A stretch of 64,000 bases of DNA. Origin: an uncultured Verrucomicrobiae bacterium (GTDB lineage Bacteria; Verrucomicrobiota; Verrucomicrobiia; Chthoniobacterales; JAFAMB01). The DNA lies in the NCBI GenBank assembly GCA_963762565.1, contig CAVXLD010000007.1, positions 448,001 to 512,000 of the forward strand. Reading direction: 5' to 3'. The translations under genes were made by a program, and so were the position numbers. Below are positions 13,246-48,359 of the stretch, one piece after another. Under the pieces are notes generated by a model. The model was not told the DNA's origin and did no database searches. It was given only the letters and a program-made list of their open reading frames with translations. Within the stretch, counting starts at the first letter, position 1; each line of letters begins with the position of its first letter.

Positions 13246-13260
13246 GGGGGAGCGTGAGAA

Positions 13261-13567: not shown

Positions 13568-14260
13568 CTAATCCGCTGGCCTGTTCAGCGAATATTTGGT
13601 CACTCCGACCTGTTTACGGATCGCCGAAAACAGATCCTCGACTCCTTGCCGATTGGCGAAGTTGATCACGAAAGCCGGTAACCCGCCGCCGCCGTCAGTT
13701 AAAATCGTGTAGGTGGCAATGGTCCTCGTGCCGCCGTCGCACGAGTCGAGGTGCCATGACCCTTGATCGAGCGTGATCCGGATCACTCCGGGACTCGGAG
13801 TTGGTCCAACCGAGTTTATCGGTTCCCAATGGAAATGGTAACTGACAGTTCCATCTTCATGCTTTTCCGCTCGGCTGGACACAGCTACGGTCACATCACG
13901 AGCCCCGATAAACGGTGGGTCCAAACGAAAATAACCGATCACTTGATGCAGCTTGCGCTCGATGATCTGGGTTTTGGTCATATAAGGCATGAAGCTTGGG
14001 TAATCTTCCACCTCGTCGATCACGTTTCTTACCACCCAATTCGGAGCGTCGATTGAACCAACCGCTCGAATTTCTTTGATCGGACAACCTGAGCGCGAGC
14101 GAGCGAAAATTGCTAAGCCCTCATCTTTACTTACCTGTACCCAATCTGAGTTCTCCGGGCTGGCTGAGCCGCTGGAAATAAAGCTCACCAGCCCGCAAAA
14201 AAGGCAGGCGATTGAAACCGCGGCAGTTCCCCTTCGTACCTTTGACTTACGCGATAGCAT
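13568..14260 (-). CDS. START/SRPBCC-domain lipid-binding protein, exported
   Basis: Signal peptide; W......GL.I..R, YPSFMPY, ARD, GSW.L, D.GG.LPAFVIN. Confidence 0.75.
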   Translation of the reverse strand: MLSRKSKVRRGTAAVSIACLFCGLVSFISSGSASPENSDWVQVSKDEGLAIFARSRSGCPIKEIRAVGSIDAPNWVVRNVIDEVEDYPSFMPYMTKTQIIERKLHQVIGYFRLDPPFIGARDVTVAVSSRAEKHEDGTVSYHFHWEPINSVGPTPSPGVIRITLDQGSWHLDSCDGGTRTIATYTILTDGGGGLPAFVINFANRQGVEDLFSAIRKQVGVTKYSLNRPAD

Positions 14261-14433
14261 GACGCTTTCGTTCGGAAATCAGGCCAAGTTCGGCCATCTA
14301 GTCGAGTCTAACTGAAGTAGTCCGATAAAAGCTGCATTATTGTTCAGTTCAAACAGAGAAATTTGTGATGGTTAGGTTAACCGGCCTGCCGAACTGGTTT
14401 TGTAGCCAACCGCCAGGCCGCTCGAAGACAGGA

Positions 14434-21772: not shown

Positions 21773-21776
21773 AACC

Positions 21777-23222
21777 ATGTCCCAGCCAAGATCTTCTGGC
21801 CAAAATCCTTTTTTCCTGATTGCAGGCGATTCAACAGCGGCGGCCTTGACCGCGCTTGAGTTAGCTCGCCAAGGCATCCCCGCTAAGTTGGTCGCCGCAC
21901 CGGGTTCGGCTGGGGCTGGAATCGCTATGTCCTTTGGTATTCCGCTCGATCCTAGTTCGTTTTCCTTGTTCCTTGGGCGGGTAGGGTTAGGGGACGTAAC
22001 GCATCTGATTCTCTTTCCGACCGATCTCTGTGAGCTCGCGCTTTGGTTAGCAGCGTCCCAGGACGCGCTTGACGCAAAAAGTAAGCGAACTCCTCTAAGC
22101 GTATTCGCCGCGGCTCCAAACGCCGAAAGTCTGGCTGCGGTGCGCCGCGGCGTCGTGGTGATCGAGCCTCAGCCAAGTTTCTTTGTTCAGTTCTTTTCCA
22201 CAGACGAGGACGTAGCCCGTGACTTCGTATTTCAATATTTTGGCAACAGGGCCAGGGTTTCGGATGGAGCTGACGGGTTCTTGATCGTTGGTTCCAACTC
22301 GTTAGCCGAAGCGATCGCGCTCAAGATCGCCAAGCTAGGTGGATTGCTCGATGGTTCCAAACCCAAGCTCGACTGGATCGTTGCCCGGGACATGGCGAAG
22401 AGAGTCGATCTTCGCTATCCGGCACTAAAAGAAATCTGTATTCTGAATTTCCACTCGCCCGAAGACGAGCCTCTCGCGATGATCGAGTCGTTTGCTGACT
22501 TGACTCGCGCACTGATCTTAACCGAAGGATCAAGAGGTCTGGAGGAGTGTTCCACCATTGGTCAACGAGGAGTGCTCAAGCATTTCAGTGGAACCTATGT
22601 TCCGCACAGCCGGTCTGACCGGCTGAATAGAATATTTCACAAACATTTCTCCTGGGGCGCCAATGCGGGTCATGTGCGTTTCTTTGGGGATTATTCAGCC
22701 ATTGCGTCCCAGGCCCGGTTCGTAGAAACGGGGCGATTTCGGTTACCTCGCTCTATCCATGAGCGTTATTGTGAGGCGCGGATGGCAGAGGGAGAATTAC
22801 CCGTCGATAATCCGAGTCTAAAGCCCTGGCACGCGATCGATGAAGACCTGCGTCAATCGAACCGGGAACGAGCGGATCATGTGATCTATGTGCTCGGGCG
22901 TTTAGGCTATGTGGTCGAAGAAGCCGGTCGCAACAGTTCCTCTTCACCTATTTCCATCAATAAAGATGTTCTAGAACAGCTGGCTCGGCTGGAACATATG
23001 CGTTGGACGGCCGAGCGTCGATTGGCTTGGTGGTCCTTTGGAGCGATCCGAGACAATGCCTTGCGCCGGCATCCATTGCTTATCCCTTACGAGGCGCTCG
23101 ATGAAGACGAGAAAGAAAAGGATCGACAGACCATGCGTGACATCCCCGAGGTCCTGCGGCGAGCAGGCTTGGTGGCGAGATCCGGAGACCAGACAGGAAT
23201 GCCGCCGCCATTACCGAATTGA
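21777..23222 (+). CDS. RyR-domain protein with degenerate TrkA-N/Rossmann-like N-terminus
   Basis: IHERY...PW..IDEDLRQSNRERADH; LARLEHMRW.AERR..WWSFG..RD...RRHPLLIPYEALDEDEKEKDR; ATG 4 nt after the ABC stop. Confidence 0.8.
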   Translation: MSQPRSSGQNPFFLIAGDSTAAALTALELARQGIPAKLVAAPGSAGAGIAMSFGIPLDPSSFSLFLGRVGLGDVTHLILFPTDLCELALWLAASQDALDAKSKRTPLSVFAAAPNAESLAAVRRGVVVIEPQPSFFVQFFSTDEDVARDFVFQYFGNRARVSDGADGFLIVGSNSLAEAIALKIAKLGGLLDGSKPKLDWIVARDMAKRVDLRYPALKEICILNFHSPEDEPLAMIESFADLTRALILTEGSRGLEECSTIGQRGVLKHFSGTYVPHSRSDRLNRIFHKHFSWGANAGHVRFFGDYSAIASQARFVETGRFRLPRSIHERYCEARMAEGELPVDNPSLKPWHAIDEDLRQSNRERADHVIYVLGRLGYVVEEAGRNSSSSPISINKDVLEQLARLEHMRWTAERRLAWWSFGAIRDNALRRHPLLIPYEALDEDEKEKDRQTMRDIPEVLRRAGLVARSGDQTGMPPPLPN

Positions 23223-36239: not shown

Positions 36240-36300
36240 AGAAACGCGGAACGCCGAACGCCGAACGCCGAACGCCGAACGCCAAACGCCAAACGGCGAA
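36240..36300 (+). repeat. (GAACGCC)n heptamer array
   Basis: Direct reading; abuts the stop of the 36303 gene. Confidence 0.85.
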
Positions 36301-36302
36301 CG

Positions 36303-37598
36303 TTACATTCCCTCTAGTTCGCGCACGTAGTTCAACGCTGAAACGATTGTGGGAGATTTCGGATTCGAGTCCGCTAACTTAGTCAATTCAGTGTCGGCTT
36401 CGGCGAATAGCCCCGCTCGAGCTAGAAGGAACGATTTTAGGAGGTGCGAAGACTGTGCCGCTTCCGAAGCCAGCGATTGGAGGTCGCTCTCCGAAATGAT
36501 CTTGAATCGTCCGGTTACCGATTTCCCTGGTATGCTTCCTCCAGTAGGGGGCTCAGTGACGTCCCAAACATAAAATCTTCCTGGCCGAAGAGGACCAGGA
36601 ATTGCGAAACTATGTTTGTCTCCGGATAGCTGCGTTTCGAGGACCGTTTCGTTTGTTGCGCAGTCGCGCACTGTGAGAGTTTGATTCTTGGACGCGTCCG
36701 AGCCCGCTGACCAGCTCAATACGGGAATCGTGTCTCGTATAACAATCCCATTTGGCTGAACATCCGGGTCTGGCGTCGCTCGAGGTAGGGCGACGACGGC
36801 GCCGAAAATCTTTCGACTGAAGAAGTACTCACCGCTAGGGAGTTTGGTCTCGGATGGAGCGCGAGTCGTTACCGCCGGCGTCTCGGATAGACCCCGCATC
36901 AGATCCGGTGCCTGTAATTGAGCGTGAGCAAGTTCGAGGATTGAGGTGGCAAGCACAGTAACTGCCTCCCTGGAGAGTGTCGCTGACAGTGGCATCAGTT
37001 GGCCGTCGGCTGACACGTTGAAAGTTAGGGAACCATCTTGGATAGAGTCCATCGCGAGTTGGCTCGGGGCAGGCGATCGGTAAAATAAACCTGTCGAAAC
37101 TACGCCCGTGATGATGACCAAAGCGGCCGCTACCGCTCCCGCAAGAACCAAGGGATTGGCGAACCACTCAGTGACTCGATCGCGGATCGCCTGAAGGTTC
37201 GGTGACTGGTATCGATTGTGCCCCCGGCGTTGCAAAAGCTCAGGCGCATAATTTCGGGAAGGCAATTCTTGGAGCTCGCTCCTGAAGTCCGCCAGATCTG
37301 CGATAGTCTCCCGGCAAAGGGCGCATTTTATCAAATGATCCTCGACGGAACCTTTTTGCAGCGGCATGAGATCGTTGTCTGCGTAGGCGGCAAGTACATC
37401 GTCCGATGGATGCTGCTCGCTGGGCGCAACCGGCAATATCTGGTCTTCCACCGAACCCGCTTTTTCCGATCTAAGCGCAACAAGATCGTTCCGGCACGAG
37501 TCGCAACCTCGAACATGTTCGACCGCGGCAATAGTGTCGGCTGGCGATAGTGACCGCGCCAGCAACCCTCGCCGCAATTGTTCAGTGAGATGAGCCAT
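36303..37598 (-). CDS. Tandem zf-HC2 (ZAS) anti-sigma-like membrane protein, paralog 1
   Basis: EHVRGCDSC and DHLIKCALC; single TM (PLVLAGAVAAALVIITGVV); extracytoplasmic beta-rich plus helical C-terminal domain. Confidence 0.8.
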   Translation of the reverse strand: MAHLTEQLRRGLLARSLSPADTIAAVEHVRGCDSCRNDLVALRSEKAGSVEDQILPVAPSEQHPSDDVLAAYADNDLMPLQKGSVEDHLIKCALCRETIADLADFRSELQELPSRNYAPELLQRRGHNRYQSPNLQAIRDRVTEWFANPLVLAGAVAAALVIITGVVSTGLFYRSPAPSQLAMDSIQDGSLTFNVSADGQLMPLSATLSREAVTVLATSILELAHAQLQAPDLMRGLSETPAVTTRAPSETKLPSGEYFFSRKIFGAVVALPRATPDPDVQPNGIVIRDTIPVLSWSAGSDASKNQTLTVRDCATNETVLETQLSGDKHSFAIPGPLRPGRFYVWDVTEPPTGGSIPGKSVTGRFKIISESDLQSLASEAAQSSHLLKSFLLARAGLFAEADTELTKLADSNPKSPTIVSALNYVRELEGM

Positions 37599-37619
37599 TA
37601 TTCACCAAATTCTGCATTG

Positions 37620-37646
37620 GTAACCGCAATGCGTCCTTTTGTTACA
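37620..37646 (-). promoter_or_regulatory. Conserved upstream motif TGTAACAAAAGGACGCATTGCGGTTAC (candidate promoter/operator)
   Basis: Close match to the motif at 44696-44720 upstream of the paralogous gene. Confidence 0.5.
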
Positions 37647-40600
37647 GATGCAGATGCAGAAACGGTTGCCATATTGCCAATATCTTCAATATCTGGCACA
37701 AACTCATCTATAAAGATTTCGCTCCTAGTCCTTCTTATTTGTCTCGTCGGCCTTTCCTGCGACGCCGATTCACAAACTCAAAATAGTCCAGCGAGCAGAG
37801 ATGGAGCTGATCTTGAGGCCCAACTCGCCAAAGCGAAAGAGGCCGGGCAACGAGGGGATTATGTCGAAGCAGAGCGCCTGGCCCAGCAAGCTTTGGGGTT
37901 CGCCCGGACCAAAGCGGATCCGGATGCGTTAATTGCAGCTTTGCACGAGTCGGGGCAGGCCGCGCTAGGCCTGGGACAGTTCGAAAGCGCTCGGAAGGAC
38001 TTTGACGAGGAATTGGAGGTCAATCGCCGGAACCAGAGCGCCAACCCTATTGGGGAAGCGACGGCTCTCGACGACCTTGCCGAACTTTCGAACGCGACCT
38101 GGGACTACGAAGAGGCACTCAAAACCCTCGGAAAAAGCCAAGCTCTTTGCGATCAAAAGAGCGGTGACGGGCGCGTCTTAAATGCGCGGATCCTACAGGA
38201 CCGGGGTGAAGCCGAGATTGGAATTGGCGAATTCGAGAAGGCCGAAGAACCGATCCAAGCCGCTCTCAAGACGTTCACGAGTGAAGGAGCCCAGCGCGAG
38301 ACACTGACTACCCAGGACGAGCTGGCACGGTCGGAGCTGCTTGTGCGAAAGATGGTGGACGCAAAGGCTCTTTTCACCTCTGTTCTCGAGCAGAGGAAAG
38401 CTCTCCTGGGAGAAAAACACCCAGATACCGCAGAAAGCCAGGCATCGCTCGGTTATTATCATTATGTCGAAGGCGACTACGCGGCCGCTGAGCCGTTATT
38501 TCTGAGCGCGATGGAGACTCTGAGGACGGGTCTCGGCCCCGAGAGCCCGCTGTTCCTTTTGGTTGCTAACTACGAAGCGATGTTGAAAATCCGCACGGGG
38601 CAGTTTGCGGAGGCTCAGCAGATTCTCCAAAAAATATTGGACGCCCGGTTGAAGGTATATGGCGAAGACAGCGCCGCGACGGCCGAGACCCTCAACAATT
38701 TGGCTGCCACTTACTGGAAACAAAATAACCTGGAGAAAACTGCCGATTTACTCCGACAGAGCCTGGCTATCACCGAGAAGAAATCAGGAGAAAGCCTCGA
38801 TACTGCGGATACAGCCAACAACCTGGGCCGAGTGCTGGAAAAGCTGAAGAAATACGATGAGGCGGAGAAGTCATTTATTCGCAGTTTAAGTATCCGGCGG
38901 GCGATTCTGCCTGCCGGACATCCGGATACAGACACTTCGGAGTTCACTCTCGCCAGGCTTTACGACGAAGAAGGGAAGTTCGACCAAGCTGAGCCCTTAT
39001 GGACGCAGGGCATCAGCGCAATGAGCGAGCGTCTCGGAACGCTCCATCGAGACCTGATCTTTGGTTATCAAGAGGCCGCGCTGAATCGACTGGAGCTAGG
39101 TCACCGCGATCAGGCGATAGAGCTCATCCGAAAATATGAGCGGGCAAGCGAAGCCCTGCTGGCCAACATTCTGATATTCACCACAGAAGAAGAACGCCTC
39201 GAGTTTACCCGGACCCAGGATCCGTTCTCGCTGCTAGCCACCGCCGATCTGGGCGAGGACCTGGCGAACGCAGTGCTCCGTTGGAAAGGGATCGTCCTCG
39301 ATTCATTGTTGGAAGATAAATTGGTCGCTTCCCAAGAAGGAGATCCGGCCATTAAAGAATTGGCGGCGGAACTCAAAGCTCAATATAGCGCCTTGAATAA
39401 GGTCCCTCGAGGGATCATCGACAGTTCAGGTAACCCACAAACTGCTGCGGCGAACTCGATTGGCGCAAAAATCGACGAGCTACAAAAACAGCTGGCCCTC
39501 AAGGTGAACGGATATGGCTCTGTCCATCGGGCGCTCAAAGTCACCTACCAGGATGTGCAGGCCGCGCTTACTGACCACACGACGCTGGTGGAATTCCTTC
39601 GTTGCAAAACGTATCAGGGGAAAGGCTCTTGGCTGGACGAATATGGGGCTCTGATTATCGTTCAACATGGCGCTCCGAAATGGATTAATCTCGGGGATGC
39701 TGCCGCAATTGATGCCGCGATCCTTCAGTTTCGAAATGCTATTAGCGGAGATCCTAGCAAATTGTATCCGATTTGCCGCCAGCTGTATGACCGGTTAGTC
39801 GGACCTATCCTTGCTCAGCTTCCGTCTGACTACGACCGATTGATTGTTAGTCCGGACGGCCAATTAAATTTCCTGCCGCTTGCAGTTCTGCTGACGCCGA
39901 ACGGCAAGTTTCTAGGTCAGGGTTACACCATCGGTTATGTGGCCAGCGGTCGTGACCTCCTGCGATCAGCGACGCCCCAGTCAGGCGCTAAGGCAATCAA
40001 GATCTTTGCGAACCCGGACTTTGATCCTGCGGCTCCGACGAAGTTAGCGGAAAAGCGTGGTGACGGAACGCCAAATGAAATCTCCCGTGGGCTTGCGCAA
40101 TCTCTTTCCGCGAGTCTGACGCTTGGGACCTTGCCAGGCACAACCACCGAAGCAGACCTAATCCGGCGTGCCGCTGAGAAAAATGGAATCACCGATGTTC
40201 AGATTCTTCAAGGGGACGAAGCGACCAAAACCGCGTTGTTTGACATAAATTCGCCTTGGGTTCTTCATTTGGCAACGCATGCGCTGGTGTTATCGGAAGC
40301 GCAACTTGCGACCGAGAATCCGATGCATCGCTGCGCCCTGGCTTTTACCGGCGCGCAACGGACTCTGCGCGATTGGGCACACGGTGAGTTTCCTGCCCCG
40401 GAAAACGATGGAATCGTCTTGGCTGATGAAGTCGCGCGTATTCCGTTGACAGGCACCTGGCTAGTGACTTTATCCGCTTGCCAGACCGGTATGGGTGAAG
40501 CGGATGTCGGTGAAGGAGTCCTCGGACTCCGCCGTGGATTCACCATGGCAGGTGCTGAAAATCTTTTGCTGACTCTCTGGCAGATTCCGGATTCCGATAC

Positions 40601-40775
40601 GGCCGAATTTATGTCCTCATTTTATCGGGCTGCGTTTGCCAAACATGACGCCCTGGCCGCACTGACCGAAACCCAGCGCGAAGCTTTGGTCCGTATCAGG
40701 CAAGAGGAAAGTCTCGGCGCCGCCATTCAAAAAGCGGGGCCGTTTGTGCTGACGGTGCAAGCGGGATTGAAATGA
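37629..40775 (+). CDS. Exported TPR-repeat CHAT-domain (caspase-like) protease 1
   Basis: Hydrophobic signal segment; many TPR repeats (LGEKHPDTA, TLNNLA); CHAT motifs SPDGQLNFLP, LHLATH, LVTLSACQTG, GLRRGF..AGA; start uncertain (37629 or TTG 37674). Confidence 0.9.
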   Translation: MRPFVTDADAETVAILPISSISGTNSSIKISLLVLLICLVGLSCDADSQTQNSPASRDGADLEAQLAKAKEAGQRGDYVEAERLAQQALGFARTKADPDALIAALHESGQAALGLGQFESARKDFDEELEVNRRNQSANPIGEATALDDLAELSNATWDYEEALKTLGKSQALCDQKSGDGRVLNARILQDRGEAEIGIGEFEKAEEPIQAALKTFTSEGAQRETLTTQDELARSELLVRKMVDAKALFTSVLEQRKALLGEKHPDTAESQASLGYYHYVEGDYAAAEPLFLSAMETLRTGLGPESPLFLLVANYEAMLKIRTGQFAEAQQILQKILDARLKVYGEDSAATAETLNNLAATYWKQNNLEKTADLLRQSLAITEKKSGESLDTADTANNLGRVLEKLKKYDEAEKSFIRSLSIRRAILPAGHPDTDTSEFTLARLYDEEGKFDQAEPLWTQGISAMSERLGTLHRDLIFGYQEAALNRLELGHRDQAIELIRKYERASEALLANILIFTTEEERLEFTRTQDPFSLLATADLGEDLANAVLRWKGIVLDSLLEDKLVASQEGDPAIKELAAELKAQYSALNKVPRGIIDSSGNPQTAAANSIGAKIDELQKQLALKVNGYGSVHRALKVTYQDVQAALTDHTTLVEFLRCKTYQGKGSWLDEYGALIIVQHGAPKWINLGDAAAIDAAILQFRNAISGDPSKLYPICRQLYDRLVGPILAQLPSDYDRLIVSPDGQLNFLPLAVLLTPNGKFLGQGYTIGYVASGRDLLRSATPQSGAKAIKIFANPDFDPAAPTKLAEKRGDGTPNEISRGLAQSLSASLTLGTLPGTTTEADLIRRAAEKNGITDVQILQGDEATKTALFDINSPWVLHLATHALVLSEAQLATENPMHRCALAFTGAQRTLRDWAHGEFPAPENDGIVLADEVARIPLTGTWLVTLSACQTGMGEADVGEGVLGLRRGFTMAGAENLLLTLWQIPDSDTAEFMSSFYRAAFAKHDALAALTETQREALVRIRQEESLGAAIQKAGPFVLTVQAGLK

Positions 40776-40884
40776 AAACGAAAAATGTAACCGATGGTGA
40801 GTCCGCGAGTCAGAGGTCGCTTACATGGTCGGTCCGCCCCAAGCAATGTTGCCGACTTCGTGGGCCCACTCTCTTAACTGATCG

Positions 40885-43362
40885 ATGAAAGAGCGCCTCT
40901 CTCCGGTTGTTTTTTCGCTATTGCTTGCCTCTATCGCAGTCGCGCAGCAGAACTCTAGTCAATTGCTCGACGCTGGTTTTACCACGCCGATGTTTGAGTA
41001 CCGACTGGCTTTGCGTAGTGCCTGCCACAAACTAAACGTGGCTCTCAGGGAGGAAGCCGGTGGCTACCACGGAAACGGTCAGGACCTTCTGTTTGCTCAG
41101 GCCATGGTTTCAATCGGTCAACTACTCGATGATTCCTGGTTAACTCTAGTTGGATTCCACTACTGGGGTAATATCGAGCTGTACCAAGCAAAATATCCGG
41201 CCGCACTTGAGCATAGCAAAGCGGCTCTTCGATGTCTTGCTCCCCGGTTTGATATTGACCATCCGGCAACCATCGACTTTGCGAAACTGTCCCAGATCGA
41301 CTTCAAGAATGCCGCTGCCCTGCAGTTTGACGAAATCGCGGTTATTTTTACTAACTGGCAAAAGTTTGATTCTGCTGCGGAATACGCTCGGGCGGCGATC
41401 AAACTTTTGCGACTGGAGAAACCGGGTAACGACGCTCTGCTGGCTAATGCCACGGACCTTTGCGCGACTGCTCTTGAGCAACAGGGACGCTGGACCGAGG
41501 CCCTTCATGGTTACGAAGACGCTAGAGACGTATTAGTTGCTACGCTGGCCAAGCTATCTCCATCCGACCGAATAGCGGCTTCCGACACCAAGTTGGTGCT
41601 GGCTGATACGTGGCGTTCAATCGGATACCTCAAATTGGAACATCTTCAGCGCTCTGATAGACCCGAGGCTCTAACTGATTTTCGGGAGAGTCTGCGTCTA
41701 GCGGAGGAGCTGCGTACTCCCTACGAGGTTACTGAAGGAAAACTTGCGTTGGCGATCTATTTCTACGAGACCGGTGATCTCGATCAATCCCTTTCCTGGG
41801 CCAACGCCGCTGCGGCGTTAGCCGACCCAAGTGCGCAGGGCAGCAACGCTGACACGTTATGGAAAGCGCTTTCTATCCAGGGAAAATGTCTAATCGGATT
41901 GCAGCGATTTGAACAGGCTGAGACGGTGCTTCGCCAAGCAGTCGACGTTATCGAGGGGATGCGCAAGGAAGCGGGGATCGATCGCAGTTCCGCGTCGAGT
42001 TTTTACGACAGTATCGCCTGGTTCTTCGCGGAAAAGACCGGAGCATATGTGGCGCTTGCGCAACTTTTTGCCGACCAAAACCGGAATCTCGATGCGTTGA
42101 AATACACTGAGCTTTCGAGGCAACGAGCTCTGTTGGATGCGCTGGCTAAAACCGGATCCGTAGATGAAACAGCGCAGCCTTCCTTTGTGCGTAATGAGAT
42201 AGGAGCTGCCGGGTTAAGTGAATTAATTCCAGACGAGAATACCGCCATCGTCGAATACTTGTTAGGAGCCGACCGCGGTTACGCTTTTGTGCTGAAGAGG
42301 TCCAAGTCGCCTTTGCCGGTCACAATAACGGCAGTTCCGCTAACCTACCCAAAAGTAGTTCAATCGAGTTCTTTGAGCAGTTCGCTGCAATCACTTGACG
42401 CGCTGGTTGATCACTTCCGCAATCAGATAGAAAAGAGCTATGCTGCTTATCCCAAAGAGCAGGCCGAAGCCCTCTTCAATTGCTTGATCGCTCCGATTGT
42501 GCCCGACATAGCCAACGAACGCGCGGTCGTTTTTGTTCCCGCAGGCAAACTCTGGGAACTTCCGTTTCAGGCGTTGCCTGCAATCGATAAGGAAAAGCAT
42601 CGATATCTGATAGAAGACTTCGCAGTTTCGTACGCGCCCTCTCTAGCTGTGCTTTCTCATCTGCGAGCAGTGCCTCGTCCTGCTTTATCGCGAAGCTGGA
42701 TGTTGGCGATAGGGCAACCCACTATCAAACAGGACGAACCGGAGAATTTTAAGGAGATCACTGGCACCGGGGAAATCGTTCAAGATCTGGCGACCCTATT
42801 TGGCTCTGATGTCGTTAAAAGCTATACGGGTGCGGAAGCGACTAAAGCCAATTTTATGGCTGAGGCTCCGTCAAAGCCGGTCATATTTCTGGCTACCCAT
42901 GCGTTCCTCGATGGTGAAGATCCCCTTAGTTCCTACTTTTTACTTAGTCCGATGCCGAGTCAGTCTGGTAGTGAACGTTTAACTACCTCCGAGATCTTAT
43001 CAATGGGGCTGGCCAGCCGCATGGCGCTTCTGTTTGCCTGCGATACGGAGCGCGGACGGATTGTCCAAGGCGAAGGCGAGATCGGTCTAGCCTGGGCTTT
43101 TCTCCATGGGGGCTGCCTGGCGACGTTAGTGAGTCAATGGCCGGTGGAATTAAGGGCGACAGCAAAACTTTCTTACTTTTTCATGAGCGATCTGAAGAGG
43201 GAACTGAATACATCGAGCGAGACGGCTTTTTCAATTTCAGAGTTGCTGCGCGATGCGCAATTACGACTGTTAAATACCGACGAGTTCAACCATCCTTTCT
43301 ACTGGGCGGGAATGGTGTTAGTGGGCGATCCCAACTGGCGTTCGCAGTCGATTACTCCTTGA
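40885..43362 (+). CDS. Exported TPR-repeat CHAT-domain protease 2
   Basis: Signal peptide AVA-Q; TPR helices; VP.G.LW.LPF.AL, SYAPS, FLATH, LFACDT, SQWPV, HPFYWAG.VLVGD. Confidence 0.9.
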   Translation: MKERLSPVVFSLLLASIAVAQQNSSQLLDAGFTTPMFEYRLALRSACHKLNVALREEAGGYHGNGQDLLFAQAMVSIGQLLDDSWLTLVGFHYWGNIELYQAKYPAALEHSKAALRCLAPRFDIDHPATIDFAKLSQIDFKNAAALQFDEIAVIFTNWQKFDSAAEYARAAIKLLRLEKPGNDALLANATDLCATALEQQGRWTEALHGYEDARDVLVATLAKLSPSDRIAASDTKLVLADTWRSIGYLKLEHLQRSDRPEALTDFRESLRLAEELRTPYEVTEGKLALAIYFYETGDLDQSLSWANAAAALADPSAQGSNADTLWKALSIQGKCLIGLQRFEQAETVLRQAVDVIEGMRKEAGIDRSSASSFYDSIAWFFAEKTGAYVALAQLFADQNRNLDALKYTELSRQRALLDALAKTGSVDETAQPSFVRNEIGAAGLSELIPDENTAIVEYLLGADRGYAFVLKRSKSPLPVTITAVPLTYPKVVQSSSLSSSLQSLDALVDHFRNQIEKSYAAYPKEQAEALFNCLIAPIVPDIANERAVVFVPAGKLWELPFQALPAIDKEKHRYLIEDFAVSYAPSLAVLSHLRAVPRPALSRSWMLAIGQPTIKQDEPENFKEITGTGEIVQDLATLFGSDVVKSYTGAEATKANFMAEAPSKPVIFLATHAFLDGEDPLSSYFLLSPMPSQSGSERLTTSEILSMGLASRMALLFACDTERGRIVQGEGEIGLAWAFLHGGCLATLVSQWPVELRATAKLSYFFMSDLKRELNTSSETAFSISELLRDAQLRLLNTDEFNHPFYWAGMVLVGDPNWRSQSITP

Positions 43363-44659
43363 GCCGACGGATCTCTCCAATCATGCGATTCAGGAGGTCT
43401 TTGGCAGCAGAGGTCTGGCCGGGCTCGGCTAACAGGCTCTCGAAATCAGCTTGGGCATCATCGAGAAGACCAGCCTTTAGATTCAACAAGCCGTCCAGCA
43501 AGCGGTCGCTACCAATCTCTCTTTTCGACGTGTTCAATTGAGCCACCTCTCCTTGGCTTAACTCAGCAAATTTTGCTTGGGGTTCTTCCACGCCGGGAGC
43601 ATCGATTTCCTGATCGTTTCGAACGGCCGTCACGTACCAGCGGTAACGCACACCTGAAGTAAGGGATATCGACTCGGGTATCGACCATTCACAAGTATTT
43701 GAGTCCGCCGTTGGCGCAGGAATAGCGGGACTAGTTGCGACCTCTTCCTGAGTTCGGTCGTCGGCAATCACATGAACTATGTAAGCGGTCGCACCTGGCG
43801 CAGCAGCCCATTTGAACGCCGGCCGCTCAGAGCTTATCAGGGTGCGATTCGGGCTAATCACATGAAAAGGAGGCTTGGCTGGCGATTGGCCAAGCAAAAC
43901 TGAAGGGGGCCTCTTTAGATTATCTAACGCGTCTTTAACGCTCTGCGAAAACTCGGGGGTCTCGTCCCGCGAGACTGAGCTTACCAGGTTGTTCATCTCA
44001 GCCAGCTCTTTCTTTGGCAGAGCAGCGGGCGGATTTTTGATTTCGTTCGCTTCGAACGCGATGTGGTGATCCCCGTCGAGCACCGCGATTTGTAGCCTCG
44101 ATCCGATGTCCGCAACCCCGGGCGTCGATGGGGAGCGAACTACGATAATGCCTATCGCTACGATAAGCGCAGCGGCCGCGGCCGTGCCCGCGAGGATCAA
44201 CGGCTGCTTGAACCAGGCAAGAAATCCGAGTTTGTCGCGGAGAAAACCCAATGCGCCACCAGATTCAGGGGTGGCTGAGGCAGACGACCAGGAGCTGGTC
44301 CCCGGCGTGTACTCCCGGCGAGGTGTCTGCAGTAGCTCTTCGCGAAAAGGCTTAAGGTCCGCCAAGCTGCGTTGGCAGAGCTCGCAAGTCCCAAGATGTG
44401 CCTCCAGGTCAACCCTGTCCGAACGAGTTAGATCGTCGTCCAAATAGGCTCCCAGCGTATCGGCTGAAGGATGTTCCTCGTTCGGCGTTTCCGGCAAAAC
44501 AGCGTCAACAAGCGAACCGGGCTTAGTCGTTCTCAAAGCCGATAGTTGCTCCCGGCAAGCGTCGCATTCTCGAAGATGTTTGATGACATCGAGAGTCTCC
44601 TCCGGGGAAAGTAACCGCGCCAGGAAGCGATGCTGTAGTTGTTCGGAAATGTGATCCAT
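43352..44659 (-). CDS. Tandem zf-HC2 (ZAS) anti-sigma-like membrane protein, paralog 2
   Basis: KHLRECDAC and AHLGTCELC; TM PLILAGTAAAAALIVAIGIIVV; C-terminal P.F.W...Y.W.V beta domain; N-terminus clearly homologous to the 36303 gene. Confidence 0.8.
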   Translation of the reverse strand: MDHISEQLQHRFLARLLSPEETLDVIKHLRECDACREQLSALRTTKPGSLVDAVLPETPNEEHPSADTLGAYLDDDLTRSDRVDLEAHLGTCELCQRSLADLKPFREELLQTPRREYTPGTSSWSSASATPESGGALGFLRDKLGFLAWFKQPLILAGTAAAAALIVAIGIIVVRSPSTPGVADIGSRLQIAVLDGDHHIAFEANEIKNPPAALPKKELAEMNNLVSSVSRDETPEFSQSVKDALDNLKRPPSVLLGQSPAKPPFHVISPNRTLISSERPAFKWAAAPGATAYIVHVIADDRTQEEVATSPAIPAPTADSNTCEWSIPESISLTSGVRYRWYVTAVRNDQEIDAPGVEEPQAKFAELSQGEVAQLNTSKREIGSDRLLDGLLNLKAGLLDDAQADFESLLAEPGQTSAAKDLLNRMIGEIRRLKE

Positions 44660-44695
44660 CTATCTAGCCAGAATCTCGCGTCCGAGCACGAGCCC

Positions 44696-44720
44696 GTGAC
44701 GCAAATCGTCCTTATTTACA
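44696..44720 (-). promoter_or_regulatory. Conserved upstream motif TGTAAATAAGGACGATTTGCGTCAC
   Basis: Matches the 37620-37646 motif. Confidence 0.5.
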
Positions 44721-44764
44721 TTAGAGATGAAGAAATACGGATCATATTGGTAATAATTTTGAGG

Positions 44765-45021
44765 TTAACCGCGAATGGACGCGAATCGGAACCGCGAATG
44801 CACACGAATGAATAGCCGCAAAAGAACGCAAAGAACGCAAAAATGAGAAAGATTCCCTCGTGATGAGGGTCTTAGGGGACTCAACGACTGAGGCGTGAGA
44901 TGCCGAGTCCGTTCCTTTTGAGGCCGGTTCCTTTTTTCGCGTAAATCCGTATCCATTCGCGGTTGATTTTATCTGCCTCTATCTGCGTTCATCTGCGGTT
45001 GAACTTCGTTGCGTTCTTTGT
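44765..45021. repeat. REP-like palindromic cluster (AACCGCGAAT.., AGCCGCAAAAGAACGCAAAGAACGCAA arm); the right arm is split by the mobile element
   Basis: aaccgcgaatgga / tccattcgcggtt pair; arm at 44808-44840 complementary to 45009-45021 joined to 46709-46728. Confidence 0.8.
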
Positions 45022-46705
45022 ACTGCAATAACAACATTTCGTTCGTTTTCGCGAGGATTTTAGGCCGCCATTTTGGTAAGCTGGTCGACGTCGCAGTGGC
45101 GTGCGGCAAGCAAAGCGGTGACGATACGTTGTCCGGTTTTTGTGAGGTGGTAACGATGAGTGCCGGAGACTTTTTGCAGGATTCCATGAGCGCGCAACAG
45201 TGCCAGGCGGCGGGTGATGGCAGCGGCTTGGCGAAGTTGTAGCTTTTTATTAGGGGTCTTGGAGTGAAGCAGTTTTCGTAAATCGCGGTTGCGCAACCCA
45301 TTCAAGCGGAACTCACCCCGATTGATCGCTTCCAATAGCGCACCATCCTCATCGGTCCAGGGGTTGAGAGCACGGTAACGTTGGCCCTTAAGAACTACGG
45401 CTCGGCAAACGCCTAGTGCTTCTTGGTAAAGAGGGGTTTTGCCCGTTGTGCTAGCTAAGGCTTGGAGATAGCGCCGATTAGCAGCTTGGCTGACTTGAGC
45501 TCTTCGCCATAGATCGGCAACTCCAAAGCGCAACGGCAGCCACTTGAGCACTTGCTCGGGATCTCCCTCACTAGCCCGATAAACCTTAAACTGTTTGGGG
45601 TCATTAATGGTGGTCTCTACGCGCAAAATCAGGGCTTGCTTGTCGTAGAGCTTAAGTGAGTTGGCGTTGACACTATGGCGGAGGCGAACTCCTTCGGGTC
45701 GCTGCTTCAGGGTGCTGGTCACTTGACCCTGACATCGAGTTGGCCGGCGCTGGCCAAGGAAGCGCAGCACGTCGGGGCTAGCAAAACTACTAATGCCGTG
45801 ATGTAAAAACTGTGGGTAAAGTGCAGCTAGACTCCTGGCATCTTTAAAAAGCAGATCGGTGGCGTACTCGCTTTGGGCCGCGCTCCAGTAATAACCCTGA
45901 CCCAAAGGAGCGCAGAGCTCGGAGTGTAAGGGATGGCATTGATCAAGCAGAGCGTTTAAGACTTGGGGCCAGTCGGTGTGCAGTTGTTCATCAAGCAGGG
46001 CCTGTGCTGCCACCGCATCCTTTAGTTTGATAAAGCAGTTGTCCGCCTTTTGATACCTCAGCCCGGCTCGATCCATTTGCCGAGCTAACCACTCCCGACC
46101 ATTGAGGCAGACTTCCACTGTAAAAGGAAACCAACTCTGCACCCGTACATGCATCAGTCCAAAATCGGCATGCATGAAGTAGTGATAAAAGTGGGTACAC
46201 ATCCGAGGCTCGATCACTAGATGAATCTCTTTGCTGGTTCGATCACCTCGTACCGAATAGGAATAGCAAGGTTCCTTAGCGCTAAAGAGCACGATCAAGC
46301 CCTTCTTTATCCTGTCCTCTAAAGCAATCTGGCGTGCGTAGTCCTCTTTGGATAGTTTTGGACTGCTCAAATACTGCGCCGGTCGCTTGGCGGCTGCTGC
46401 GGCGCGGTAAGCTGCGGCCTTGACTTTGGCGGTCACACTCTCGGCAAAGTGTTTAAACTCCTTGATGAGCACTCCACAACTGCACAGATAACGTTCCATG
46501 GCCGCGGGCTGAAACAGCAGCCGTAGTGTTCCTCTAAACCGAATCCGGTCGAATCCAGAAAGAATCCCCGTGACGTTCTCTCCAAATTTGCTAAGAAAGC
46601 TCTCTGGAACCCCGTGGGTCGCTGGTATTGGTTGAGTCTTCACACACCAGCTTTTATCAAGCCCCCACGGTGTTCCACCATGATTTGGTTGCGGCTTTGC
46701 CGCGC
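45022..46705 (-). mobile_element. Insertion element without terminal inverted repeats, inserted into a REP arm; flanked by TGT direct repeats, with a terminal GCGGC-TTT-GCCGC hairpin
   Basis: Removing it restores a 33-nt arm matching 44808-44840 at 31/33 positions; TGT at 45019-45021 and 46706-46708; single large ORF. Confidence 0.8.
45060..46643 (-). CDS. Putative transposase/relaxase-like protein (Rep_trans-like YDK...RVE motif, C-terminal winged HTH)
   Basis: GFDRIRFRGTL, SLKLYDKQ..ILRVETTIN, C-terminal ITRRLALLRAHGILQKV..THRYHLT; fills the element. Confidence 0.7.
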   Translation of the reverse strand: MKTQPIPATHGVPESFLSKFGENVTGILSGFDRIRFRGTLRLLFQPAAMERYLCSCGVLIKEFKHFAESVTAKVKAAAYRAAAAAKRPAQYLSSPKLSKEDYARQIALEDRIKKGLIVLFSAKEPCYSYSVRGDRTSKEIHLVIEPRMCTHFYHYFMHADFGLMHVRVQSWFPFTVEVCLNGREWLARQMDRAGLRYQKADNCFIKLKDAVAAQALLDEQLHTDWPQVLNALLDQCHPLHSELCAPLGQGYYWSAAQSEYATDLLFKDARSLAALYPQFLHHGISSFASPDVLRFLGQRRPTRCQGQVTSTLKQRPEGVRLRHSVNANSLKLYDKQALILRVETTINDPKQFKVYRASEGDPEQVLKWLPLRFGVADLWRRAQVSQAANRRYLQALASTTGKTPLYQEALGVCRAVVLKGQRYRALNPWTDEDGALLEAINRGEFRLNGLRNRDLRKLLHSKTPNKKLQLRQAAAITRRLALLRAHGILQKVSGTHRYHLTKTGQRIVTALLAARHCDVDQLTKMAA

Positions 46706-46720
46706 TGTGCTCTTTTGCGG

Positions 46721-47788
46721 CTATTCATCTGGACTCCTGCTTTGCATTCGCCGGCGTAGGGTGAAGCGTGCCTGACTGCGCAGGTTCACAACGGTTTGCC
46801 TCCGGATCCCTAGGAGACGCGCAATTTGCTGATCGTCCAGGGGTAATCTCGGTAGCACGGAAAGAATCTGGGTTAGCGAGATACCGAGCGACGCGGCGAG
46901 ATCTTGGAGCGTTGCTACTTGGCTCAGTTCGAAATCGAGCAAATCTTCTGCCTTTAATAGGAGCACCGCCCGTTCTTTTCGGTCCAATCGCTGGAGTTGT
47001 TCCCAGAAATTTCTAAGCCGTTCGCGGTTCAGAGATTCGCCGCGAGTTGGTGCTTCGGGTTGTTGGGTTCTCAGCAGCGACTCCAGGTTTCTGTGGTCTA
47101 AGGAAACGCGTTGATCCTTGACCTGTAAGATAAAAGCGACGGCAGTCACGAAATCGTTCCAGGGTAACGGACCGCCTGCCTGTTGGAGCGCCCAGGCGGC
47201 AATCTCCGGGAGAGGTGATGCTGGCGAAGGAAGGTCTTCGATCGAGTTCTGCTCCAAGAGATCAAAGTGCGGAACCGGACCGACGTGTTTCTGGCGCCAG
47301 AGCGTAAAGCCCGCGAGGGAGCCATGCTTAGCGTCCTGCCATTTGGTGAGGCCGGTTTGGCCCGCGCTTTCCCGGCAGAGATAGGCAAGTCTGAAAGAGA
47401 GCCGTGTCCAAAGTGGGGTCTCGTCACGCACCGCTGCTCGCCACGTGTTGAAGCTGGCCCCGGCAACATAAGCGCGGAAGGCGCCAATCCGGTTTTTTTC
47501 GGGTGTGGCATAGACCTGCCAGAGATGGCCCGTGAGCGCCATCAAGGTTTGTTGGCGAAGGTCCTGGGCGTCGAGGTCGCGCTGGTCAATGAACCCAGGG
47601 TTCCGGGATATCGAGGCCGCACCCAGACGCTGGTTGATGACCTTTTGAATGATGCTCAACGCCTCCGTCCGCAGGAGTGCGTCTAGCTCGTCTTTGGCCG
47701 ACGCTTCATCCGGCGCCAACAGGAACGAATGCAACAACACATCTTGCCCGGCCACTCGGCGATCTGCATCTATCTTACGTCGTTCCAT
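46721..47788 (-). CDS. Atypical long ECF-like sigma-70 factor (355 aa)
   Basis: Region 2 DAQDLRQQTL...FRAYVAGASFN; region 4 LQRLDRKERAVLLL...DDQQIARLLGIRRQTVVNLRSQAR, with large insertions. Confidence 0.7.
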   Translation of the reverse strand: MERRKIDADRRVAGQDVLLHSFLLAPDEASAKDELDALLRTEALSIIQKVINQRLGAASISRNPGFIDQRDLDAQDLRQQTLMALTGHLWQVYATPEKNRIGAFRAYVAGASFNTWRAAVRDETPLWTRLSFRLAYLCRESAGQTGLTKWQDAKHGSLAGFTLWRQKHVGPVPHFDLLEQNSIEDLPSPASPLPEIAAWALQQAGGPLPWNDFVTAVAFILQVKDQRVSLDHRNLESLLRTQQPEAPTRGESLNRERLRNFWEQLQRLDRKERAVLLLKAEDLLDFELSQVATLQDLAASLGISLTQILSVLPRLPLDDQQIARLLGIRRQTVVNLRSQARFTLRRRMQSRSPDE

Positions 47789-48077
47789 CTCGGTGCCGAT
47801 CTCCGGCGAAGCCGTTCCATTTTGTAGTTACTTCTCTTATAAACAAATGATGAGCAGATTGTGCCCCGGTTGGGCCGGAAAACTTCAAGATCCTGAACTC
47901 GAATTGCCCACAGGAGAAGCATTTTTTCGGTAGCTCGCACCTCCTTCTTCCGTCTCTAAGATTTGAGTAGCGTAGCATAGTGAGGGTTAGGGCACGTCTT
48001 GACCGGAATTCAGAGGGGCCGGCCAGACGTGCCCGGTTTGGTTTTCCACCTGGCTTGCTAGGCGATAGAGTGTCGCC

Positions 48078-48359
48078 ATGCATCCGAAGGAGCAAGAGAT
48101 ACGGGAATTCGCAGCCGCTGCACCTTTTGTGCCCTTTACTCTGGTTGCCGCCAGCGGCGAACGGTACAAAGTCCCGACACACGATCATATCTTCTTCGCT
48201 CCAAATGTCGATGACGATGGGGCGCCATTGCCGGACGGAGAGCGTTCACAGATGTTTACTGTATTCGCCAGAGGATCGCGTGTGCGTCATCTTTTCTTTG
48301 ACCTTATTACCGCGATCGAAACCGAAGGGACACCTGGTACGAAGGAACCGGTGAAATAG
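48078..48359 (+). CDS. Small hypothetical protein
   Basis: PFVPFTL...SGERY.V...DH motif, a pattern I recall from small beta proteins of PVC bacteria. Confidence 0.65.
   Translation: MHPKEQEIREFAAAAPFVPFTLVAASGERYKVPTHDHIFFAPNVDDDGAPLPDGERSQMFTVFARGSRVRHLFFDLITAIETEGTPGTKEPVK

Follow-up and report, generated by a model that had tools for sequence, protein, structure and literature searches.

Analysis of a 64,000-nucleotide stretch of DNA from an uncultured soil Verrucomicrobiae bacterium (hereafter the window) and of related loci showed that genes for a sigma-like protein, membrane anti-sigma factors (AS) and TPR-CHAT caspase-like proteins form a conserved gene module, widespread in soil bacteria. 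This module could act in transmembrane signalling, with sigma held by a membrane anti-sigma factor and freed after an exported CHAT protease cuts the anti-sigma ectodomain, a reading that we consider evenly balanced between belief and doubt. Two exported TPR-CHAT proteins, two double-zinc anti-sigma factors and a split sigma had been described in the earlier note, and the corresponding open reading frames, motifs and folds were all recovered (Table 1). The 3' end of AS2 overlaps CHAT2 by 11 nt, and the locus is flanked by housekeeping genes.

Table 1. Features of the sigma/anti-sigma/CHAT locus (positions in the window)
Feature	Position	Strand	Length	Description	Score or basis
AS1	36303..37598	-	431 aa	Anti-sigma factor: tandem HxxxCxxC modules, one TM helix, beta-sandwich and TPR-like ectodomain	zf-HC2 28.2 bits
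Bipartite element GCAGATGCAGAAACGGTTGCCATATTGCC	37650..37678	+ as written	29 nt	Between AS1 start and CHAT1; promoter-like; working strand could be either	
CHAT1	37674..40775	+		Exported-type TPR-CHAT caspase-like protein; frame open from 37578, probable start TTG 37674	Pfam CHAT E 1.5e-57; many TPR families
CHAT2	40885..43362	+	825 aa	Exported-type TPR-CHAT caspase-like protein; His672 and Cys719	Pfam CHAT E 9.7e-54
AS2	43352..44659	-	435 aa	AS1 paralogue; zinc module 1 at 1-45, zinc module 2 at 60-112, TM 155-174, ectodomain 190-434	zf-HC2 43.5 bits (2 stretches); model
Degenerate copy of bipartite element AGAGATGAAGAAATACGGATCATATTGGT	44723..44751	+ as written, opposite to AS2		Just upstream of AS2 start	
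Insertion with ORF527	44990..46719 (left boundary approximate)	-	about 1.73 kb	ORF527 at 45060-46643; separates sigma gene from AS2	
Sigma-like gene	46721..47788	-	355 aa	sigma2 about 15-125, then about 125 inserted residues, then sigma4 about 250-352 containing a further insert	

The three genes show strict synteny. Of 389 confirmed sigma-family loci from species-representative genomes, the best 80 were evaluated; in 74 of the 75 with sufficient sequence, the gene immediately downstream of sigma belongs to the AS family, and 39 of the 44 eligible loci have a CHAT gene no more than 5 kb downstream or 1.5 kb upstream. This co-occurrence, for which the earlier note had proposed a neighbourhood survey of homologues, is far beyond chance. 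That the locus is one of a large family and not a single case had escaped the earlier note. In 32 of the 39 CHAT-bearing loci, the CHAT gene is convergent and immediately follows the AS gene. Among the five loci lacking it at the usual place, three (L040, L080 and L105) carry a CHAT gene farther upstream or overlapping, and in L065 and L088 none was found within 10 kb. Clustering of all neighbouring ORFs returned only these three as recurrent families (77, 73 and 57 loci); after them, the most frequent family that has a plausible sense-strand gene reaches 13 loci, and two bigger clusters (60 and 34 loci) were put aside as probable antisense shadow ORFs. The sigma family occurs chiefly in Acidobacteriota and Chthoniobacterales, and at E<=1e-8 it was not detected in a sample of 400 other genomes from across the phylum, with only five candidates scored per genome.

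In the curated profile scans, the sigma-like protein had no region-2 family match and scored below the thresholds of TIGR02937 (24.3 vs 42.9 bits) and Sigma70_r4_2 (18.9 vs 25.7). The top structural neighbours of its model (pLDDT 73.2) are sigma factors: residues 253-352 resemble the ECF sigma4 domain of CnrH (4cxf_A, Z 9.2, rmsd 1.9, 67 residues aligned), and residues 15-121 resemble sigma2 of SigC (2o7g_B, Z 7.1) and SigR (1h3l_B, Z 7.0). Sigma function is proposed because of these fold matches, whose Z scores of 7-9 fall in the middling range of the search tool, and the modelled protein looks like a divergent ECF-type sigma factor. It is highly improbable that it is no working sigma at all and instead a sigma-derived DNA-binding regulator or decoy, in a module that does not act via the holoenzyme. 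Such a protein would fit the sub-threshold scores, the 125-aa insert between sigma2 and sigma4, the second insert inside sigma4 and a weak match of the family profile (positions 180-225) to the N-terminal domain of RNA polymerase delta (E 0.0015-0.0037). Against it stand the recovery of both sigma folds, the ZAS anti-sigma gene found next to the sigma gene throughout nearly all of the sampled loci, and the size of a family that comprises 1331 clusters at E<=1e-30 and is conserved over its full length (mostly about 310-420 aa, range 275-422).

Two HxxxCxxC motifs can be read directly in each of AS1 and AS2, and both proteins exceed the zf-HC2 cut-off of 22.2 bits. Among 67 AS homologues, 56 carry two motifs and 11 carry one. 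The AlphaFold model of AS2 (pLDDT 85.7) consists of a pair of three-helix modules followed by a single TM helix and a folded ectodomain, in agreement with the topology put forward in the earlier note. The ectodomain is predicted to be compact, with pLDDT above 90 over residues 190-434, and the flexible tether that precedes it (175-189) is short; residues 248-266 form a sequence-conserved loop without secondary structure (consensus R...P..L..L.G). AS2 gave matches to the MtxA C-terminal domain (E 1.8e-6) and to FN3 folds. The AS ectodomain also resembles DUF928 weakly (E 0.0022 for AS2; E<0.01 for 5 of 70 homologues, best 8e-5), and a protein atlas gave a lead to DUF928 for this ectodomain (score 0.89).

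TPR families were matched on both CHAT1 and CHAT2 by the Pfam scan. Both proteins keep the His/Cys dyad (LATH...SAC and LATH...FAC), whose two columns are invariant in all 57 aligned members of the CHAT family. The export claimed for them in the earlier note appears sound as far as their N-termini can tell: the translation of CHAT2 begins with a classic signal peptide, MKERLSPVVFSLLLASIAVA-QQ, and the CHAT1 ORF as listed begins too early, a start at the TTG giving a signal peptide-like N-terminus. By an in-house heuristic (not SignalP), such N-termini were scored in 43 of 52 CHAT homologues, the remaining 9 lacking one, and in 0 of 75 control anti-sigma N-termini.

The genome (6.1 Mb) holds a single sigma of this family, only two full AS-family genes and only two Pfam CHAT genes, all of them at the locus, so that one sigma gene is present per two anti-sigma genes. 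AS1 and AS2 share 47.3% identity over residues 1-112, the putative sigma-binding part, and 19.6% over the ectodomain; CHAT1 and CHAT2 share 18%. This agrees with the two protease/anti-sigma pairs and one sigma proposed earlier. In genome G012, an AS1-type ectodomain (46.8% identity to that of AS1) accompanies a CHAT1-type protease (58.6% identity to CHAT1). Partial Mantel tests on 31 loci with 2000 permutations, a procedure known to be liberal where sequences share phylogeny, showed that CHAT divergence tracks the AS ectodomain given sigma (r 0.44, reached in 0/2000 permutations) and not the AS N-terminus (r -0.09, 1573/2000), while sigma divergence tracks the AS N-terminus given CHAT (r 0.45, 0/2000). 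In another verrucomicrobial family, true DUF928 genes had a TPR-CHAT gene nearby in 10 of 10 regions (fetched spans of at most 19 kb); these regions, drawn from one family or two related ones, are not independent of one another.

In the signalling scheme that we propose, each anti-sigma factor would use its cytoplasmic tandem zinc modules to keep sigma at the membrane in the resting state. Outside the cytoplasmic membrane, its ectodomain, which combines a small juxtamembrane domain with a DUF928-like beta-sandwich and a TPR-like helical cap, would serve the cognate TPR-CHAT protein as a dedicated binding partner. On sensing a signal, the TPR part would activate the His/Cys protease, and CHAT would then cut the ectodomain as a site-1 protease. 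An RseP-type site-2 protease, together with cytoplasmic proteases, may remove the stump and leave sigma free to act on its putative regulon; a Peptidase_M50 gene (554-aa frame) is present in G000. AS1 with CHAT1 and AS2 with CHAT2, two diverged receptor/protease pairs, would converge on one sigma, and full release may therefore need both inputs.

Binding without cleavage would fit the same synteny and co-variation data. The ectodomain could be a securin-like pseudosubstrate or inhibitor, or a docking receptor reporting whether CHAT is free or busy; a conformational change or a different site-1 protease would free sigma, and the targets cut by CHAT would be other envelope or foreign proteins. 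We regard this as rather unlikely. In its favour, the compact AS2 ectodomain and its short tether offer few evident unstructured substrate stretches, stand-alone DUF928 proteins occur with TPR-CHAT genes without any anti-sigma, and dyad mutants of the Myxococcus xanthus protein DdvA behave like wild type in the available part of its description (PMC11506125). On the other side, the dyad is invariant across the CHAT family and proteolysis therefore matters for something, and the AS2 loop 248-266 and the tether are possible cut sites.

The bipartite element between AS1 and CHAT1 is the best match (20.8 bits) in the whole genome to a PWM derived from 68 element instances in related loci. In reading A, it precedes CHAT genes, on the same strand as the gene, at 13 sites spread over 12 loci, and likewise precedes CHAT1 in the window. 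The locus was found in no RNA run. The block upstream of AS2 is conserved in all four aligned genus members, and this degenerate copy scores only -1.4 because it has TATTGGT in place of TATTACC. ECF sigma factors often regulate adjacent genes, and CHAT could accordingly be an output only: sigma and anti-sigma would sense something else via the ectodomain and turn on the adjoining exported protease gene, with targets in, for example, surface-protein processing or inter-bacterial conflict. Reading A and adjacent-gene control speak for this possibility, which we nonetheless find improbable. The element could work in either orientation, and the output-only explanation does not account for CHAT divergence following the ectodomain rather than the cytoplasmic part, for two diverged ectodomains accompanying two diverged CHAT genes, or for DUF928-type domains occurring with CHAT elsewhere. 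The 1.7-kb insertion between the sigma gene and AS2, which the earlier note does not mention, looks mobile in character: it is absent from three congeners (L023, L018 and L022), in which a spacer of 220-320 nt separates the sigma stop from AS2, and a second, decayed copy is found on contig C3. ORF527 matched no Pfam or NCBIfam family.

The earlier note knew a CHAT/anti-sigma/sigma relay only in cytoplasmic type III-E form. That view is outdated, and the envelope-located idea is not new, because in the closest known system, DdvA/DdvS of M. xanthus, the anti-sigma forms a fusion protein with a TPR-CHAT located in the periplasm; a CHAT site-1 cut followed by RseP is proposed there, and DdvA becomes accessible to RseP once its TPR-CHAT domain is removed (PMC11506125). 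The precedent is itself unproven, because the available text of that report describes dyad mutants without phenotype and autoproteolysis as not observed. In both systems, an ECF-type sigma goes with a single-pass anti-sigma, whose N-terminal part is a zinc-bound helical bundle, and with an extracytoplasmic TPR-CHAT that keeps its His/Cys dyad intact. The AS profile matched the DdvA N-terminal domain weakly (8rlz_A, E 0.016), and no match of CHAT1 to DdvA chains was found by sequence at E<=0.01. DdvA unites TPR-CHAT and anti-sigma in one protein and has one zinc module, whereas here the TPR-CHAT is a separate exported-type protein, the anti-sigma has two modules and a beta-sandwich and TPR-like ectodomain, and the sigma carries the long insert and fails curated ECF models. 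DdvA-like fusions are reported only in Myxococcota and one Comamonas, unlike the family described here, and the locus, with its housekeeping flanks, has no CBASS/CRISPR neighbourhood.

The type III-E Craspase accessory circuit (Csx29 TPR-CHAT, Csx30 and RpoE/CASP-sigma; PMC10028731) also couples an ECF-type sigma with an inhibitor protein and a TPR-CHAT protease, but is described in the available text as cytoplasmic, RNA-guided and CRISPR-linked; here the proteases have predicted signal peptides and the inhibitor is a membrane-spanning protein, and the 36 window ORFs scanned gave no match to a cas family. Exported-type TPR-CHAT and DUF928 beta-sandwich proteins also meet in TPR-CHAT/DUF928/ShlB/TPS (/CHASE2-cyclase) neighbourhoods, the 10 regions mentioned above, where DUF928 is stand-alone, sigma and anti-sigma are lacking and any output would be a CHASE2 adenylate/guanylate cyclase; our literature search found no paper combining DUF928 and CHAT, nor CHASE2 and "CHAT domain". 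ECF54 sigma factors have CHAT, subtilase and carboxypeptidase domains in their conserved context, with proteolytic control proposed, and the sections available describe them as lacking an anti-sigma (PMC8999054), in contrast to the ZAS anti-sigma nearly always present here. EACC2-caspase systems likewise tie a caspase-fold protease genomically to an ECF-type sigma and DUF1822, with autopeptidase activation proposed (Kaur et al., eLife 2021, PMC8195603); as far as the accessible text goes, their partners are EACC2, DUF1822 and TRADD-N in a conflict-system context, with no ZAS anti-sigma, unlike the module described here.

What is new here is the split-gene form, a distribution far wider than that of DdvA/DdvS, and the divergent sigma. 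With the inhibitor and the protease split in this way, the idea that the protease frees sigma becomes directly testable.

The locus belongs to an uncultured Verrucomicrobiae bacterium whose genome (G000) measures 6.1 Mb and is 94% complete; the DNA runs containing the stretch are soil metagenomes, and for positions 36300-46200 a search of sequencing runs listed none from RNA. It carries a divergent ECF-type sigma-like gene, two paralogous single-pass anti-sigma genes (AS1 and AS2) and two genes for TPR-CHAT caspase-like proteins (CHAT1 and CHAT2). A census of G000 found no CHAT gene, full AS-family gene or sigma factor of this family outside this locus, which has two, two and one of them, respectively. 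The flanking genes have housekeeping functions (queuosine synthesis, Tag glycosylase, 2-hydroxyacid dehydrogenase, GH15 and a ClC channel). ORF137, a frame without family or counterpart in congeners, was set aside as probably not a gene. Elsewhere in the window, a 508-aa RyR-domain protein (E 7.5e-18), followed downstream by a methyltransferase and two radical-SAM genes, is unrelated to the module.

Coordinates of the features discussed (window nucleotides unless another contig, locus or protein is named)
Feature	Position	Strand	Remark
Sigma-like gene	46721-47788	-	355 aa
Delta-like region of sigma-like protein	47084-47221	-	residues ~190-235; weak profile match
ORF137	47775-48188		rejected as a gene
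ORF527	45060-46643	-	between sigma-like gene and AS2
Insertion carrying ORF527	44990-46719		~1.73 kb
Second ORF527 copy	G000 contig C3:410431-411070		decayed
Repeats in sigma-AS2 spacer	44780-44990		inverted repeats
Degenerate element copy	44723-44751		abuts AS2 start
AS2	43352-44659	-	convergent with CHAT2
CHAT2	40885-43362	+	
CHAT1	37578/37674-40775	+	two possible starts
Best element match in G000	37650-37678		between AS1 and CHAT1
AS1	36303-37598	-	divergent from CHAT1
RyR-domain gene	21696-23222	+	508 aa
AS2 model, three-helix modules	residues 6-42 and 66-111		two, separate
AS2 model, disordered segment	residues 120-138		
AS2 model, transmembrane helix	residues 155-174		one; short low-confidence tether follows
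AS2 ectodomain, hairpin-plus-helix unit	residues 190-247		juxtamembrane; confidently folded
AS2 ectodomain, beta-sandwich	residues 267-366		confidently folded
AS2 ectodomain, four TPR-like helices	residues 369-434		confidently folded
Anti-sigma relative, locus L020	8719-9864		25% identical to AS1
Anti-sigma relative, locus L021	8913-9422		20% identical to AS1
TPR-CHAT/DUF928 cluster, locus L122 (G486:C13)	5032-13909		TPR-CHAT, DUF928, ShlB-type outer-membrane transporter, TPS-domain protein, CHASE2 adenylate/guanylate cyclase
TPR-CHAT/DUF928 cluster, locus L127 (G481:C6)	5222-14349		TPR-CHAT, DUF928, ShlB-type outer-membrane transporter, TPS-domain protein

An earlier note made from the sequence alone had described CHAT1 and CHAT2 as exported TPR-CHAT proteins that keep a His/Cys dyad, and our analysis agrees. 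Both consist of TPR arrays followed by a C-terminal CHAT domain, which scored 195.7 and 183.2 bits against PF12770 (cut-off 24; E 1.5e-57 and 9.7e-54). The catalytic His and Cys columns are invariant in all 57 aligned family members; the domain scores and catalytic residues together assign both proteins to the CHAT group of clan CD. CHAT2 begins with a textbook signal peptide, and CHAT1 also has one if TTG 37674 is its start codon. By our own charge and hydrophobicity rule, a heuristic used in place of SignalP, 43 of 52 CHAT homologues have signal-peptide-like N-termini versus none of 75 control N-termini. A comparison of CHAT1 with PDB sequences matched TPR proteins only.

The anti-sigma factors had been noted for two zinc motifs, one transmembrane segment and a large ectodomain in each protein. 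AS1 and AS2 scored 28.2 and 43.5 bits against zf-HC2 (PF13490; cut-off 22.2), and the HxxxCxxC signature with its upstream fourth ligand is present in both, as expected of ZAS domains. Each protein has two such motifs about 60 residues apart, those of module 2 being read directly from the sequence; two motifs were found in 56 of 67 homologues and one in the other 11. The motif-1 ligands H3, H28, C32 and C35 are almost invariant among 70 sequences. In two distant relatives, at loci L020 and L021, neither module has the His/Cys ligands, which means that zinc binding is not a trait of every family member. The AS2 model, built from the 70-sequence alignment (pLDDT 85.7), agrees with the layout read from the sequence. 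Its ectodomain resembles the C-terminal domain of MtxA (4z29_A, Foldseek E 1.8e-6) and FN3 modules. AS2 also weakly resembles DUF928 (PF06051; E 0.0022), at 18.2 bits versus a gathering score of 26; E values below 0.01 were obtained for five of 70 homologues, and protein atlas clusters labelled "DUF928" (0.89) and "DUF928/TPR" (0.82) serve as leads only. These profile scores weakly suggest an ectodomain fold related to DUF928, outside the family as delimited by its curated cut-off.

For the sigma-like protein, the earlier reading of regions 2 and 4 separated by long inserts was upheld by the model (pLDDT 73.2, 12-sequence alignment). Residues 15-121 adopt an ECF sigma2 fold, matching SigC (2o7g_B; Z 7.1, rmsd 2.6, 81 aligned) and SigR (1h3l_B; Z 7.0, rmsd 2.3, 78 aligned) in a middling range of Z. 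Residues 253-352 match the sigma4 domain of CnrH (4cxf_A; Z 9.2, rmsd 1.9, 67 aligned) and many further ECF sigma4 domains. These alignments cover only 57-77 of the 100 residues, which indicates a second insert, inside sigma4. ECF sigma factors consist of sigma2 and sigma4 with only a short linker between them and no sigma3; here the two domains are about 125 residues apart, and the model folds part of this stretch (strands 147-161, helices 193-222). Positions 180-225 of the family profile weakly match the RNA polymerase delta N-terminal domain (E 0.0015-0.0037, five distinct chains). We take this domain to be a HARE-HTH fold, and the profile match suggests that the insert is a winged-helix module. 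A rival explanation is that the protein is not a true sigma factor. In keeping with it, the curated models fell short (TIGR02937, 24.3 bits versus 42.9; Sigma70_r4_2, 18.9 versus 25.7) and Sigma70_r2 gave no match at E<=0.01. On the other side stand the two fold matches and the Foldseek neighbours of the model, all of which are sigma factors, although none reached E<=0.001.

The sigma family is a large one. A profile search of 1.84 billion representatives retrieved 2706 proteins at E<=0.001, of which 1331 reached E<=1e-30; the best 150 are mostly about 310-420 aa long (range 275-422). Among species-representative genomes queried with a 67-sequence alignment, 389 of 423 candidate stretches were confirmed as loci of the sigma family, and neighbourhood statistics were computed on the best 80 of these 389. 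These 80 come mostly from Acidobacteriota (Pyrinomonadaceae, Blastocatellia, Bryobacterales and Thermoanaerobaculia) and Chthoniobacterales, with a few from Armatimonadota and other groups. AS and CHAT genes were located with HMMs built from the window proteins and their relatives. An AS-family gene lies immediately 3' of the sigma gene in 74 of the 75 loci with sufficient sequence (the exception being L099), and a CHAT gene occupies the usual position in 39 of the 44 eligible loci. In 32 of these it follows the AS gene directly, in convergent orientation. In the five exceptions, CHAT lies further upstream (three loci) or is absent within 10 kb (two). The co-occurrence of homologues expected from the earlier note is thus seen across genomes, and this synteny, together with the census of G000, rules out chance co-location. 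Clustering of neighbouring ORFs gave no fourth conserved family, the next cluster being present in 13 loci; clusters found in 60 and 34 loci were set aside as probable antisense shadow ORFs. The sigma gene is present in 10 of 61 close genomes, and a profile search across 401 genomes of the phylum (E<=1e-8, five candidates scored per genome) returned G000 only. G012, a genome from another genus, has a plain trio, with a CHAT1-type gene divergent from the sigma and AS1-type genes.

AS1 and AS2 share 47% identity in their 112 cytoplasmic residues and 20% in the ectodomain, which in AS1 is 47% identical to that of its G012 orthologue. CHAT1 is 18% identical to CHAT2 and 58.6% to the G012 CHAT protein. 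The two anti-sigma factors therefore have their sigma-facing part in common, and their outer parts have diverged in parallel with the neighbouring proteases. Partial Mantel tests on 31 loci gave the same picture. CHAT co-varied with the AS ectodomain, given sigma (r 0.44; reached in 0 of 2000 permutations), and not with the AS N-terminus (r -0.09; 1573 of 2000). Given CHAT, sigma co-varied with the AS N-terminus (r 0.45; 0 of 2000) and less with the ectodomain (r 0.25; 18 of 2000); because the test is liberal for related sequences, these values were taken as support rather than proof. A rival account of this co-variation is that CHAT binds the ectodomain without cleaving it, in a securin-like arrangement. 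Co-variation would be expected of a binding partner and of a substrate alike, and the invariant catalytic dyad speaks for some role of proteolysis.

The DUF928 likeness was followed into other genomes. Of 201 genomes searched in the class, 12 carry bona fide DUF928 genes, and almost all of these belong to a single family. Ten of 16 DUF928 matches were examined, and a TPR-CHAT gene was found in all ten regions, each 19 kb or shorter. Domains of the kind seen in the AS ectodomain are thus regular neighbours of TPR-CHAT proteins of the exported type, also where no sigma factor is present. The gene content of the clusters at L122 and L127 points to an extracytoplasmic system of CHAT and DUF928 whose output differs. 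A literature search found no paper joining DUF928 with CHAT, or CHASE2 with "CHAT domain".

The closest characterised system is DdvA/DdvS of Myxococcus xanthus. DdvA unites ZAS, a transmembrane helix and a periplasmic TPR-CHAT in one polypeptide, whereas AS1 and AS2 contain neither CHAT nor a long TPR array and CHAT1 and CHAT2 are encoded separately, each with a predicted signal peptide. In the accessible text of the DdvA study (PMC11506125), dyad mutants behaved like the wild type, no autoproteolysis was observed, the fused form was described as narrowly distributed, and whether a periplasmic CHAT protease is truly the site-1 protease of the anti-sigma factor was left open. Craspase circuits of type III-E CRISPR follow the same logic, but those described in the available part of PMC10028731 are cytoplasmic and CRISPR-bound. 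They are recognised by association with Cas7-11 or a CRISPR array, and a Pfam scan of 8 + 28 window ORFs returned no cas or defence families. The genetic context of ECF54 includes CHAT and lacks an anti-sigma factor, as far as the accessible text goes (PMC8999054), and the caspase/ECF/DUF1822 systems of Kaur et al. 2021 have other partners in the portion available (PMC8195603). A full-text literature search retrieved only the DdvA, Craspase and ECF54 papers and no description of a split sigma/tandem-ZAS/exported CHAT trio. The main text of Casas-Pastor 2021 (PMC7826278) mentions neither CHAT, caspase nor DUF928; its supplementary group tables may list such context.

On the best-supported reading, the module would be a split version of the DdvA model. 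Anatomy, synteny and co-variation were observed, and from them we infer the remainder of the mechanism. The tandem cytoplasmic zinc modules would hold the sigma factor, and the cognate exported CHAT protease, sensing the signal through its TPR array, would have the ectodomain as its partner and probably as its substrate. Once the ectodomain is cut, an RseP-type protease would complete release; a Peptidase_M50 gene (554-aa frame) is present in G000. In the AS2 model, candidate cut sites are the tether at residues 175-189 and the loop at 248-266, which is conserved in sequence and has no structure.

K-mer enrichment upstream of CHAT genes revealed a bipartite element of 29 nt, GAAGATG-N2-GAA-N10-TATTACC with an A/T tract behind it; a naive dyad search in front of the sigma genes showed no signal beyond that of the reverse-strand control. 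A position weight matrix found 102 sites in the 80 loci (L026-L105) versus three in shuffled sequence. Of these, 34 are in the spacer between sigma and AS, on the other strand from both genes (TATTACC a median of 21 nt past the sigma ORF), 14 upstream of sigma, 13 upstream of CHAT, 5 past the AS 3' end and 36 elsewhere. The best match in all of G000 (20.8 bits) falls between AS1 and CHAT1, and the degenerate copy at the AS2 start is conserved across the genus. The genome-wide scan of G000 showed no excess over shuffled sequence (49 versus 67 at >=13 bits; 3 versus 1 at >=19), so no regulon can be called and only the top match is informative. Read as written, which we hold to be somewhat the less probable orientation, the element would serve as promoter for sigma and CHAT genes and for an antisense RNA across sigma, implying a conserved antisense promoter at the sigma 3' end in 34 loci. 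This orientation would accord with the rival view that CHAT is merely an output of the sigma/anti-sigma pair; the co-variation of CHAT with the ectodomain favours a partner. We lean slightly towards the opposite strand (GGTAAT-N16-CATC), on which the element would drive every anti-sigma gene and variable secreted neighbours, a heterogeneous set (DUF11 giants, multihaem-TPR proteins, a TonB receptor, MacB and RHS). We take this spacing to be typical ECF promoter geometry, with the A/T tract at the UP-element position. A co-oriented ORF starts within 400 nt of 67 of the 102 sites in one reading and 73 in the other.

The spacer between the sigma-like gene and AS2 also contains runs of ATTCGCG-type repeats that pair up as long inverted repeats, such as AACCGCGAATGGACGCGAATGAA opposite its near-complement. 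The matching spacers of three other loci (L018, L022 and L023) share such repeats, which might act as a hairpin/attenuator or represent a small repeat element. Alignment with three congeners delimited a single-gene insertion directly past the sigma stop codon; in these congeners, the spacer between the sigma stop and AS2 measures 220-320 nt. Its 527-aa product, ORF527, belongs to no Pfam or NCBIfam family. The closest atlas clusters are hypothetical proteins of about 520 aa from several phyla, and there is a hint of a winged helix at its C-terminus (HVO_A0261_N, E 0.0018). ORF527 may be a mobile-element protein that has not been described before.

More speculatively, exported TPR-CHAT and a DUF928-type beta-sandwich receptor might be the two halves of a general "caspase-like" sensing pair, undescribed so far, that works outside the cytoplasm and feeds varied transmembrane outputs, here a tandem-zinc-clamp anti-sigma factor on a three-part sigma, elsewhere a CHASE2 cyclase. 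On this tentative proposal, the two pairs at the locus would act as an AND (or OR) gate on one sigma factor, and the sigma's promoter ahead of each anti-sigma gene would provide negative feedback.

In DdvA, protease and proposed substrate share one chain; the split form makes the idea of CHAT as site-1 protease directly testable. Since protease and receptor are separate proteins here, cleavage, binding and specificity could be tested by mixing them, with Cys-to-Ala controls; the presence of two natural pairs in a single genome supplies controls for specificity as well. Because curated ECF models do not pick it up, the sigma family is probably missing from ECF censuses. The DUF928 link would give a first functional handle on that domain, and the module, with 389 loci and 1331 sequence clusters at E<=1e-30, is common in abundant, poorly studied soil phyla.
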